Origin: a virus
Direction: 5' to 3' (one strand)
IMG/VR virus record: IMGVR_UViG_3300035698_025300
DNA length: 64,000 nt
The notes beneath the pieces were generated by a model that saw only the letters and a program-made list of their open reading frames with translations, ran no database searches and had not been told where the DNA came from. Below are positions 10,877 through 43,759 of this stretch, piece by piece; the first letter of the stretch is position 1; each line of letters starts with the position of its first letter. A program made the position numbers and the translations under genes.

Positions 10877-10959
10877 TCCGGGCAGCAGGAATCGAACCTG
10901 CGTCAGAGCTATGCTCCCACGGTTATCAGCCGTGTGCCTAACCATTCGGCCACACCCGG
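10877..10959 (-). tRNA. tRNA-Ile(GAT) with long variable arm
   Basis: Loop CTGATAA; variable arm GGAGCATAGCTCTGAC. Confidence 0.8.
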
Positions 10960-12353: not shown

Positions 12354-12426
12354 TGGAGCTACTGGGGGTCGAACCCAGAATCTCATCCGTGCAAAGGATG
12401 CGTCTTCCCATCAAGACCTTAGCCCC
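12354..12426 (-). tRNA. tRNA-Ala(TGC)
   Basis: G3-U70, loop TTTGCAC. Confidence 0.92.
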
Positions 12427-12990: not shown

Positions 12991-13062
12991 AGCCAGTATA
13001 GAGACTTGAACTCTACTCTCTTGTCTACCAAACAAGCGCATCGCCATCTATGCTTTACCGGC
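12991..13062 (-). tRNA. tRNA-Thr(GGT)
   Basis: Loop TTGGTAG. Confidence 0.88.
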
Positions 13063-13946: not shown

Positions 13947-14033
13947 TAGGCCGGACAGGATTCGAACCTGCGATGGTGCTTTCGCAACGCCAGATTAAAA
14001 ATCTGGTCCCTTCAGCCACTCGGACACCGGCCC
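13947..14033 (-). tRNA. tRNA with TTT (Lys) anticodon on a type II, Ser-like body
   Basis: D-arm TGTCCGAGTGGCTGAAGGGA, loop TTTTTAA, 18-nt variable arm, A73. Confidence 0.8.
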
Positions 14034-14722: not shown

Positions 14723-14794
14723 AGCCGGCTGCGGGAATCGAACCCGCTTATCTGGCTTACAAGACCAGCACATTACCATTTATGCTTAACCGGC
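14723..14794 (-). tRNA. tRNA-Thr(TGT)
   Basis: Loop CTTGTAA. Confidence 0.92.
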
Positions 14795-20074: not shown

Positions 20075-20169
20075 CTCCCTAGCTAGGACTCGAACCTAGA
20101 ACCTGCTGGTTATTTATTGCGCTATTTAACGCATACAGCCAGCCGCTCTACCAATTAAGATACTAGGGA
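20075..20169 (-). tRNA. tRNA-Asn(GTT) with a 22-nt intron in the anticodon loop
   Basis: U1-A72, G73; removing 20113-20134 gives loop CTGTTAA. Confidence 0.75.
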
Positions 20170-20175
20170 ATAAGA

Positions 20176-20266
20176 CTCCAGGGGGAGGACTCGAACCTCC
20201 ATACCGTTCTAGACGGATTACGTCTGATTAACAATCAGGTCACTTACCCAATTAGTGTACCCCAGA
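20176..20266 (-). tRNA. tRNA-Asn(GTT) with long variable arm
   Basis: Loop TTGTTAA, 22-nt variable region, U1-A72, G73. Confidence 0.8.
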
Positions 20267-20345
20267 ATATGTAATATTTACTTGTCATTATTTCGCACTG
20301 ATGTTTCTTTTAAACATCTTTCCAGTTTATATCCATCAAAAAAAG

Positions 20346-42574: not shown

Positions 42575-42694
42575 ATGAATACTGCAACACAACAATTTGA
42601 AGGCGTAGCTATAGTCAATAAGACTGTCTCGCAATCTTTGTATTCATCGTTATCCTATCTCTCTAGTAGTTTATCTAGTTATTGTTTGCTGTAA
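42575..42694 (+). CDS. leader peptide 3, MNTATQQFEGVAIVNKTVSQSLYSSLSYLSSSLSSYCLL
   Basis: RBS AGGA; 39 codons before the Leu/Tyr/Cys/Ser tRNA array. Confidence 0.8.
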   Translation: MNTATQQFEGVAIVNKTVSQSLYSSLSYLSSSLSSYCLL

Positions 42695-42775: not shown

Positions 42776-42852
42776 GCCCACGTAGGCAAATTGGTAAAGT
42801 CTGTTGGTTCAAAACCAGCGTAATTTTGGAGGTTCGATTCCTCTCGTGGGTA
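42776..42852 (+). tRNA. tRNA-Leu(CAA), short variable arm
   Basis: Loop TTCAAAA. Confidence 0.85.
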
Positions 42853-42943: not shown

Positions 42944-43019
42944 GCCGCGTAGGCAAATTGGTAAAGTCTGTTGGTTCAAAACCAGCGTAATTTTGGAGGT
43001 TCGATTCCTCTCGCCGGTA
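42944..43019 (+). tRNA. tRNA-Leu(CAA) duplicate with altered acceptor stem
   Basis: Body identical to 42776-42852. Confidence 0.75.
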
Positions 43020-43191: not shown

Positions 43192-43276
43192 GGAAGTGTG
43201 ACCGAGTGGATAATTGTAGCAGACTGCAAATCTGCCGAGCGTATGCCCTTCGTAAGTTCGAATCTTACCGCTTCCG
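43192..43276 (+). tRNA. tRNA with GCA (Cys) anticodon, long variable arm and G73
   Basis: Loop CTGCAAA. Confidence 0.8.
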
Positions 43277-43284
43277 TTTCTATT

Positions 43285-43367
43285 GGAAGGTAATGCAGCA
43301 TTGGTAGCTGTGCTGGTCTGCTAAGCCAAGTGTATGAAAATATCAGGTTCGATTCCTGTGCCTTCCG
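43285..43367 (+). tRNA. 8/4 tRNA-Ser(GCT)
   Basis: GGAAGGTA/TGCCTTCC, T-stem CAGG/CCTG, extended D-stem, G73. Confidence 0.85.
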
Positions 43368-43377
43368 TTGATTACCT

Positions 43378-43471
43378 GGAGCGCGTGACAGCTATTGGCA
43401 GGGCTGTGCTGGTTCTGAAAACCAGTTGGCGTCTTGATGGCGTCATGCAGGTTCGATTCCTGTCCGCTCCG
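43378..43471 (+). tRNA. tRNA-Ser(TGA), 8/4-like
   Basis: Loop TCTGAAA, T-stem CAGG/CCTG, G73, one acceptor mismatch. Confidence 0.8.
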
Positions 43472-43493
43472 TTGCTCTTAGAAGTGTGAAGTT

Positions 43494-43577
43494 GGCACGG
43501 TGGCTGAGTGGTTAAAGCGGCGGTCTGCAAAATCGTTACGCCCGCAAGGGGCGTGGGTTCGAATCCCACCCGTGCCT
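43494..43577 (+). tRNA. tRNA-Cys(GCA) with long variable arm, U73
   Basis: Loop CTGCAAA. Confidence 0.85.
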
Positions 43578-43582
43578 TTATT

Positions 43583-43672
43583 GGAAGGTAGCCGGATATT
43601 GGCTAGTCGGGGCTGGCCGGAAACCAGTTGGGCGCGTCTCGCGTCCTGAGAGTTCGATTCTCTTGCCTTCCG
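43583..43672 (+). tRNA. 8/4 tRNA-Ser(GGA)
   Basis: GGAAGGTA/TGCCTTCC, T-stem AGAG/CTCT, loop CCGGAAA. Confidence 0.85.
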
Positions 43673-43677
43673 CTTAT

Positions 43678-43759
43678 GGAGCATAGGTAGAAAGGTTCTT
43701 AACGGGTTTCGAAAGCCCGCCCAGCCTTTGGGCTGAAGGTTCGATTCCTTTATGCTCCG
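43678..43759 (+). tRNA. 8/4 tRNA-Ser(CGA)
   Basis: GGAGCATA/TATGCTCC, T-stem AAGG/CCTT, loop TTCGAAA. Confidence 0.82.

Follow-up and report, generated by a model that had tools for sequence, protein, structure and literature searches.

The four serine tRNAs encoded by a very large uncultured phage: a probable mixture of 8/4 and 7/5 forms

Do the serine transfer RNA (tRNA) genes of a phage tRNA array all share one unusual division of the acceptor/T helix, or do they represent several designs brought together in one operon? The question is raised by a stretch of 64,000 nucleotides (nt) of viral DNA (IMG/VR record IMGVR_UViG_3300035698_025300; this whole stretch is called the window below), part of a very large uncultured phage, which contains 37 tRNA genes and one tmRNA. 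Its plus strand carries tRNA-Ser(GCU) (43285-43367, 83 nt), tRNA-Ser(UGA) (43378-43471, 94 nt), tRNA-Ser(GGA) (43583-43672, 90 nt) and tRNA-Ser(CGA) (43678-43759, 82 nt), all as delimited by ARAGORN. A preliminary description held that all four have 8/4 geometry, i.e. an acceptor stem of 8 base pairs (bp) and a T-stem of 4 bp, in place of the 7/5 arrangement. Our analysis does not support this for the set as a whole: at least one gene (Ser-GCU) and probably a second (Ser-CGA) are 8/4, Ser-UGA is ambiguous and Ser-GGA is more likely 7/5. The reading that we favor, with a probability of roughly 60%, is that the four genes provide a huge phage with spare serine tRNAs that work, and that they are a mixture from several phage tRNA-Ser lineages and not a uniform 8/4 set.

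In an 8/4 fold position 65 pairs with position 8, and in a 7/5 fold with position 49. To number these positions, every tRNA of the window was anchored on its T-loop and 3' end. In Ser-GCU, Ser-UGA, Ser-GGA and Ser-CGA, in that order, position 8 is A, G, A and A and position 65 is T in all four, making 8:65 A-T, G.T, A-T and A-T, and 49:65 T.T, G.T, G.T and G.T. The 32 other tRNAs have U8 in 29 cases and A8 in three; none has a Watson-Crick 8:65 pair, and 24 have a Watson-Crick 49:65 pair. Watson-Crick complementarity at 8:65, present in three of the four Ser genes versus none of the 32 others (hypergeometric probability of all three falling among the Ser genes about 6e-4), is real, specific to the Ser genes within the window and beyond chance. 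An 8/4 drawing is possible for all four genes, and 7/5 is excluded for Ser-GCU only; Ser-GGA and Ser-CGA can be drawn equally well as 7/5 through G49.U65, and Ser-CGA also as 9/3. Thus the clean 8/4 stems previously reported for GCU, GGA and CGA can indeed be drawn in all three, but only in Ser-GCU do they shut out the alternative. ARAGORN itself chose 8/4 for GCU and UGA; for GGA and CGA it chose 7/5, including a G.U pair.

Base 8 alone is no guide to the fold. We rejected A8 as a marker of the 8/4 form, since three 7/5 tRNAs of the same phage, and the entire family to which the D-arm of Ser-GGA belongs (see below), have A8. The three are Ala-UGC (12354-12426), Thr-GGU (12991-13062) and Thr-UGU (14723-14794), all on the minus strand, with A8 instead of U8 in plain 7/5 folds; the two Thr genes also have A at position 14.

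The behavior of these positions in other phages was followed with a pattern scan of IMG/VR, in which 5' GGAR, the T-loop GGTTCGATTCC, YTCC and G73 were fixed while positions 8, 49 and 65 were left free. The yield was 114 unique Ser tRNAs of phages, which fell into 81 clusters when grouped at 85% identity. A Watson-Crick 8:65 pair with a mismatched 49:65 was found in 20 clusters and the reverse, a mismatched 8:65 with a Watson-Crick 49:65, in 27; both pairings are possible in 30, both are mismatched in two, and the remaining two combine G.U at one of these pairs with a mismatch at the other. Put differently, 8:65 is Watson-Crick in 20 of the 23 clusters in which 49:65 is mismatched compared with 10 of the 43 in which 49:65 is Watson-Crick (Fisher p = 1e-6), and among close relatives all four types of Watson-Crick pair occur at 8:65. 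The scan also uncovered many more 8/4 Ser tRNAs, including a clean four-isoacceptor 8/4 set (UGA, GGA, CGA and GCU) on a 69-kb contig (L073) and other contigs with two or three 8/4 Ser genes. The identical pattern, applied to bacterial genomes as a host background, retrieved mainly tRNA-Sec and mixed Ser types and gave no clean control. Clear 8/4-type Ser tRNAs (8:65 Watson-Crick, 49:65 mismatched) were also seen in cultured bacteria, namely Rhodoferax antarcticus ANT.BR (L196, 1740-1828), Cylindrospermum and Calothrix (L211, L239).

Pairing potential at 8:65 is insufficient for an 8/4 call, which also needs spacing and covariation within families. In the scan sample the D-stem starts 3 nt after position 7 in nine of 15 clear 8/4 tRNAs, versus 2 nt in 18 of 22 clear 7/5 tRNAs; it is 5-7 bp long in 11 of 15 of the former and 3-4 bp in 18 of 22 of the latter, with D-loops of 3-5 nt and mostly 8-10 nt, respectively. 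Between the variable arm and the 4-bp core of the T-stem, clear 8/4 tRNAs leave 0-1 unpaired nt (21 of 25) and clear 7/5 tRNAs 2-3 (27 of 39). These spacings set GCU and CGA apart from UGA and GGA. D-stem and D-loop measure 5 bp and 7 nt in GCU, 6 bp and 8 nt in UGA, 4 bp and 3 nt in CGA, and 4 bp and 11 nt in GGA, bearing out the extended D-stems noted earlier for GCU (6 bp if a T.G pair is counted) and UGA. The anticodon stem can be given 6 bp in GCU, at the cost of a bulge, and also in UGA and GGA.

We further compared the genes against two covariance models, an 8/4 model built from 24 clear 8/4 sequences (R1) and a 7/5 model built from 23 clear 7/5 sequences (R2), neither containing sequences of the window. 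Ser-GCU scored 61.9 bits with R1 and 46.3 bits with R2 (+15.6), Ser-CGA 53.9 and 49.3 bits (+4.6), Ser-GGA 51.6 and 49.3 bits (+2.3) and Ser-UGA 41.7 and 39.6 bits (+2.1). Nowhere else in the window does R1 equal or exceed R2: all other tRNAs favor 7/5, two class II tRNA-Cys genes by 24 bits (43192-43276; 34.8 with R1, 59.2 with R2) and 30 bits (43494-43577; 31.8 and 61.3). When the difference was calibrated on phage loci, including sequences outside the training sets, 8/4-type tRNAs fell at +8 to +26 bits and 7/5-type tRNAs at -5 to -46 bits. The GCU margin lies within the 8/4 range, and those of CGA, GGA and UGA lie between the two modes. The preliminary description had proposed covariance analysis as a check for better 7/5 folds; none of the four genes fits 7/5 better on this measure, although the margin is decisive for Ser-GCU only.

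The strongest case is therefore Ser-GCU (A8 = 43292, T49 = 43343, T65 = 43359). It requires 8/4, because U49.U65 cannot pair while A8-U65 is Watson-Crick; U49 can instead enter the variable-arm stem, which leaves no gap before the 4-bp T-stem. A 2-nt linker (AT) precedes the D-stem GCAGC/GCTGT with its 7-nt loop, the discriminator base is G73, and the tRNA-Sec model also aligned the gene as 8/4. Its 5' body (N8 followed by ATGCAGC) recurs in four relatives, on three phage contigs and in the Rhodoferax antarcticus genome. Three of them have A8/U49/U65 and one has G8/U49/C65, with 49:65 mismatched throughout; by comparison within this family, the step from A8-U65 to G8-C65 is a compensatory change. 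We assign the 8/4 form to Ser-GCU with high confidence.

Ser-CGA (A8 = 43685, G49 = 43735, T65 = 43751) has a layout of its own, consisting of a GG linker, the D-hairpin (T)AGAA-AGG-TTCT(T) and an AA connector, again with G73. A8-U65 is Watson-Crick, and G49 could alternatively pair with a C at the base of the variable-arm stem, again leaving no gap before the T-stem. Seventeen phage tRNAs match this layout and its segment lengths, and their 8:65 pair is A-U in nine, G-C in four, U.G in three and U-A in one, while 49:65 fails in four of the 17. Constrained folding gave -31.6 kcal/mol for 8/4, -31.3 for 9/3 and -29.1 for 7/5; a ninth pair, G9.U64, is possible, and it is as 9/3 that the tRNA-Sec model aligned the gene. 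Taken together, Ser-CGA is probably 8/4 or 9/3.

Ser-UGA (C7 = 43384, G8 = 43385, G49 = 43447, T65 = 43463, C66 = 43464) is harder to place. It had been described as 8/4 with one mismatch, and the C7.C66 mismatch is indeed there, but the eighth pair beside it is merely a G8.U65 wobble. In an alternative 7/5 fold C7 is bulged, G8 pairs with C66, U9 G10 take the place of U8 G9, and G49.U65 closes a 5-bp T-stem; this fold, which R2 picked in its alignment, has a fully canonical core with one unpaired base before the T-stem. The evidence from spacing is divided, the offset of the 6-bp D-stem being 8/4-like and the 2-nt gap between variable arm and T-stem 7/5-like. The anticodon loop is TCTGAAA (43416-43422, with C33) and G73 is present. 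Ser-UGA and Ser-GCU have clearly paralogous D-arms and anticodon stems, and an 8/4 form is a tentative possibility, to which we give a little less than even odds.

Ser-GGA (A8 = 43590, G49 = 43648, T65 = 43664) has the same 8-nt acceptor strands as Ser-GCU (GGAAGGTA/TGCCTTCC), confirming that two of the genes share them, on an otherwise canonical body: G9, a 4-bp D-stem (CCGG/TCGG), the 11-nt D-loop ATATTGGCTAG, an anticodon loop CCGGAAA (43617-43623, with C33) and G73. Its D-stem begins 2 nt past position 7 and two unpaired nt precede the T-stem core, both of which are 7/5-like. The same D-arm architecture is found in a family of nine tRNAs (F2) from phages and from the genomes of Chryseobacterium, Roseivirga, Niastella and Chryseolinea. 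A8 is present in all nine, whereas 49:65 is G.U in six, G-C in two and A-U in one, and there are A8 tRNAs of this type with C49-G65 (L208, L157 and L146). Since this body keeps A8 while 49:65 covaries, Ser-GGA appears most likely to be a 7/5 tRNA with A8, and we regard 8/4 as unlikely for it. The R1-R2 difference in the family is -1 to -22 bits, compared with +2.3 for Ser-GGA. Constrained to a cloverleaf, Ser-GGA folds at -34.3 kcal/mol, versus -41.2 kcal/mol for a competing fold, and no cloverleaf forms when it is folded unconstrained. Serine tRNAs with A8 G9 and the Ser-GGA D-arm design were observed in Bacteroidota (L215, L219, L243, L186 and L257, from Chryseobacterium, Roseivirga, Niastella, Moheibacter and a related genome), which may hint at the host group of the phage.

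If the four genes work as we propose, they would be transcribed together in one tight tRNA polycistron, and RNase P and 3' trimming would free the individual tRNAs. As CCA is encoded in none of the four, a CCA-adding enzyme would have to complete the 3' ends. Charging would fall to the host seryl-tRNA synthetase (SerRS), and the four anticodons would jointly cover the six Ser codons. The stacked acceptor/T helix would be 12 bp long in all four, this length being what EF-Tu, RNase P and the ribosome measure, while the position of the strand crossover would differ: in Ser-GCU, and probably likewise in Ser-CGA, the A8-U65 pair would serve as an eighth acceptor pair in place of the fifth T-stem pair. 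The crossover could slide in this manner because the synthetase and the ribosome tolerate the shift. SerRS accepts 8/5, 9/4, 8/4 and 9/3 tRNAs, and 8/4 and 9/3 allo-tRNAs insert serine efficiently in Escherichia coli (PMC5389517; review PMC7609411); it is by analogy with this published work that we expect the window's Ser tRNAs to be charged and to decode.

Consistent with such a role, the seryl identity set of G73 and a long variable arm, with a stem of 4-7 bp, is found in all four genes, so the G73 reported earlier for each was correct. The genes lie 5-22 nt from their neighbors, and a scan of the whole window with R1 and R2 detected no further Ser gene. Upstream of the Leu-Tyr-Cys-Ser tRNA array lies a leader open reading frame (ORF) of 39 codons (42575-42694, plus strand), the final 21 codons of which are nearly all Ser, Leu, Tyr or Cys. 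Its ten Ser codons (TCT 3, AGT 3, TCG 2, TCA 1 and TCC 1) between them span what the four Ser anticodons can read. The suggestion that the set functions in translation thus stands as a plausible reading of the sequence: discriminator bases, variable arms, a complete anticodon set and a tight polycistron behind this leader all point to it.

Several points weigh against the mixed, working set. Constrained folding separates the 7/5, 8/4 and 9/3 layouts by at most 2.5 kcal/mol, which is not decisive. Ser-UGA, Ser-GGA and Ser-CGA were judged by their architecture and by families only 60-75% identical to them, no ortholog of the array having been found, and the scan sample is conditional on the T-loop GGTTCGATTCC, GGAR and G73 and does not represent all phage tRNA-Ser. 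Expression and charging of the four tRNAs are predictions, and Ser-UGA, Ser-GGA or both could be impaired by the C33 that they share, by the acceptor mismatch of the former and by the competing fold of the latter, which is 7 kcal/mol lower.

This last point leads to the alternative that survives best, although we consider it unlikely: some of the Ser genes, most likely UGA and/or GGA, may be decaying or non-decoding (pseudo-tRNAs or regulatory RNAs), and the set would then be complete in appearance only. U33 is near-universal in tRNAs, and of 131 comparable Ser tRNAs 123 have it and eight have C33; in addition to the C7.C66 mismatch and the unfavorable cloverleaf energy, GGA has the lowest score of the four on the tRNA-Sec model and UGA on both R1 and R2, and the same array contains a degenerate tRNA-Leu(CAA) copy (42944-43019). 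On the other hand, both genes retain all helices, G73, the T-loop and G18 G19; without their anticodons the set would be incomplete, and TCT is the commonest Ser codon in the long ORFs of the window (34%). Several phage Ser tRNAs that are unrelated to each other also have C33, in CCNGAAA loops, which suggests that it is tolerated. In the scan sample we observed it in six other phage Ser tRNAs, mostly with such loops.

Somewhat less probable still is the uniform, complete 8/4 isoacceptor set of the preliminary description. In its favor, all four genes combine a base other than U at position 8, able to pair with U65, with the lack of a Watson-Crick 49:65 pair; R1 lies slightly above R2 in all of them, unlike in every other tRNA of the window; GCU and GGA have identical acceptor strands; UGA has its D-arm and anticodon stem in common with the clearly 8/4 Ser-GCU; and complete clean 8/4 sets do exist in other phages, as on the 69-kb contig. 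The difficulty lies with UGA and GGA, whose margins fall outside the range of validated 8/4 tRNAs and which, when drawn as 8/4, have two unpaired nt between variable arm and T-stem, a feature of one in 25 clear 8/4 tRNAs compared with 21 of 39 clear 7/5 tRNAs. The 8/4 drawing leaves GGA an acceptor/D linker of only 1 nt and goes against its D-arm family, in which A8 is constant and position 65 varies and pairs with 49, and it forces both a mismatch and a wobble on UGA.

We give a low probability, a shade below that of the uniform set, to the idea that the departures from the standard tRNA core (the 8/4 crossover, the lack of U8 throughout and the C33 of two genes) were selected and not just tolerated, as they might make the phage's entire serine-decoding set a poor substrate for a host defense directed at tRNAs, for instance a nuclease, or a modification or sensor that depends on U8. 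SerRS is indifferent to these positions and might then still charge the tRNAs; if true, this would account for the recurrence of full sets of non-canonical Ser tRNAs in unrelated phages. Least probable of all is an ordinary 7/5 form for the whole set, in which 49:65 would be weak or open, base 8 odd and the 8:65 complementarity incidental, for although A8 sits in plain 7/5 folds of three non-Ser tRNAs of the phage, G49.U65 can form in three of the four Ser genes and the layouts differ little in energy, U49.U65 of Ser-GCU cannot pair, its relatives keep that mismatch while A8-U65 becomes G8-C65, the 81 phage clusters have an 8:65 pair just where 49:65 fails, and R1 exceeds R2 by 15.6 bits.

Returning to the mixed set of serine tRNAs, its 8/4 members belong to a kind known since 2017, to which the window adds a further example, with half of the genes supporting the "all four" claim. 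The earlier statement that 8/4 tRNA-Ser and allo-tRNA forms are known from metagenomes was right: Mukai et al. 2017 (PMC5389517) described (8/4) tRNA-Ser from tRNA clusters of phages, and in the literature collection that we searched no later article dealt with natural 8/4 Ser tRNAs of phages. Compared by description, the window genes resemble the published ones in their location in phage tRNA clusters, Ser anticodons (GCU, UGA, GGA and CGA), long variable arm and G73. The 12-bp branch divided 8+4, with 7/5 absent or weaker, is found in Ser-GCU and probably in Ser-CGA, which also resemble the published form in a good tRNA-Sec model score and may do so in lengthened D- and anticodon stems; it is probably lacking in Ser-GGA and ambiguous in Ser-UGA. 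Differences are seen in the D-loops, which are 7-8 nt in GCU and UGA but tetraloop-like in the published consensus, and in the fit to the two layouts, 7/5 being no worse than 8/4 for two of the genes. Moreover, in published alpha-proteobacterial phage clusters an 8/4 tRNA-His stands beside 8/4 tRNA-Ser (PMC5389517), whereas the window encodes an ordinary tRNA-His, with U8 and without an 8:65 pair.

The genes are unusual by the Rfam models as well. The general 7/5 tRNA model (RF00005) has a gathering score of 29 bits, which 34 other tRNA matches in the window pass, including class II tRNAs of 83-95 nt, but which all four Ser genes miss. The best-scoring model for all four is tRNA-Sec (RF01852), with 38.7, 34.7, 33.9 and 23.7 bits (lowest in GGA). 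Bacterial tRNA-Sec, which has an 8/5 branch and a 6-bp D-stem, would share with them an 8-bp acceptor stem, the long variable arm, G73 and, by analogy, charging by SerRS. They are not tRNA-Sec, however: the scores (24-39 bits) are below the 47-bit gathering score, the branch is 12 bp and not 13, and the anticodons are for Ser and not UCA. Canonical class II tRNA-Ser, for its part, is 7/5 with U8, a 3-4-bp D-stem and an 8-11-nt D-loop, with an A8 G9 lineage (F2) in Bacteroidota genomes and phages. Ser-GGA is like it in having G9, a 4-bp D-stem, an 11-nt D-loop with A14 and G18 G19, G73 and one unpaired base ahead of a possible 5-bp T-stem, and differs in having A8 rather than U8, with a U65 that could pair with it, and C33.

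If the set works as proposed, it would be a natural case of phage serine decoding in which the crossover varies from gene to gene within one operon, and would support the view that SerRS, EF-Tu and the ribosome measure a 12-bp helix and not its 7/5 split. A separate, practical point is that standard tRNA finders and Rfam thresholds under-call such genes, as none of the four passes either gathering score.

With regard to the surroundings, the window also contains NAD salvage genes and a sigma factor gene. The plus-strand array reads Leu(CAA), Leu(UAA), a degenerate Leu copy, two odd tRNA-like genes, Cys, Ser(GCU), Ser(UGA), Cys, Ser(GGA) and Ser(CGA). The Leu copy (42944-43019) is a near-duplicate of tRNA-Leu(CAA) (42776-42852) with an acceptor stem that is no longer fully paired (33 bits), and is probably decaying within the Ser-containing array. 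A blastn search of the array against cultured phages matched tRNA-Leu genes only. Two flanking proteins, of 618 and 358 amino acids (aa), had no relatives in IMG/VR when each was used as a single query; a search with an alignment of homologs of the 618-aa protein, whose gene sits just downstream of the Ser array, found one viral and 15 metagenome loci, in none of which Ser tRNAs lie beside the gene. In three of the metagenome loci a CUA (amber-reading) tRNA directly follows the gene of the 618-aa protein relative (L128 5437-5511, L129 2211-2285 and L130 5777-5851).

The two tRNA-Cys genes interspersed with the Ser genes are themselves odd. The first, annotated tRNA-Cys(GCA) (43192-43276, plus strand), has the body of a canonical class II serine tRNA, with acceptor GGAAGUG/CGCUUCC, U8, a long variable arm and G73, and its R2 score is above those of all the real Ser genes. 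CysRS needs U73; from its bases, this tRNA should be charged with serine while reading Cys codons, or else be a copy of Ser(GCU) with an altered third anticodon base. The second tRNA-Cys(GCA) (43494-43577, plus strand, 84 nt) has U73, which fits CysRS identity; its long variable arm makes it class II, which is unusual for a cysteine tRNA. Its R2 score likewise exceeds those of the Ser genes. Long extra arms are normally absent from Ile, Lys and Asn tRNAs as well, and yet four minus-strand tRNAs of 83-95 nt with Ile(GAU), Lys(UUU) and Asn(GUU) anticodons (10877-10959, 13947-14033, 20075-20169 and 20174-20267) have them.

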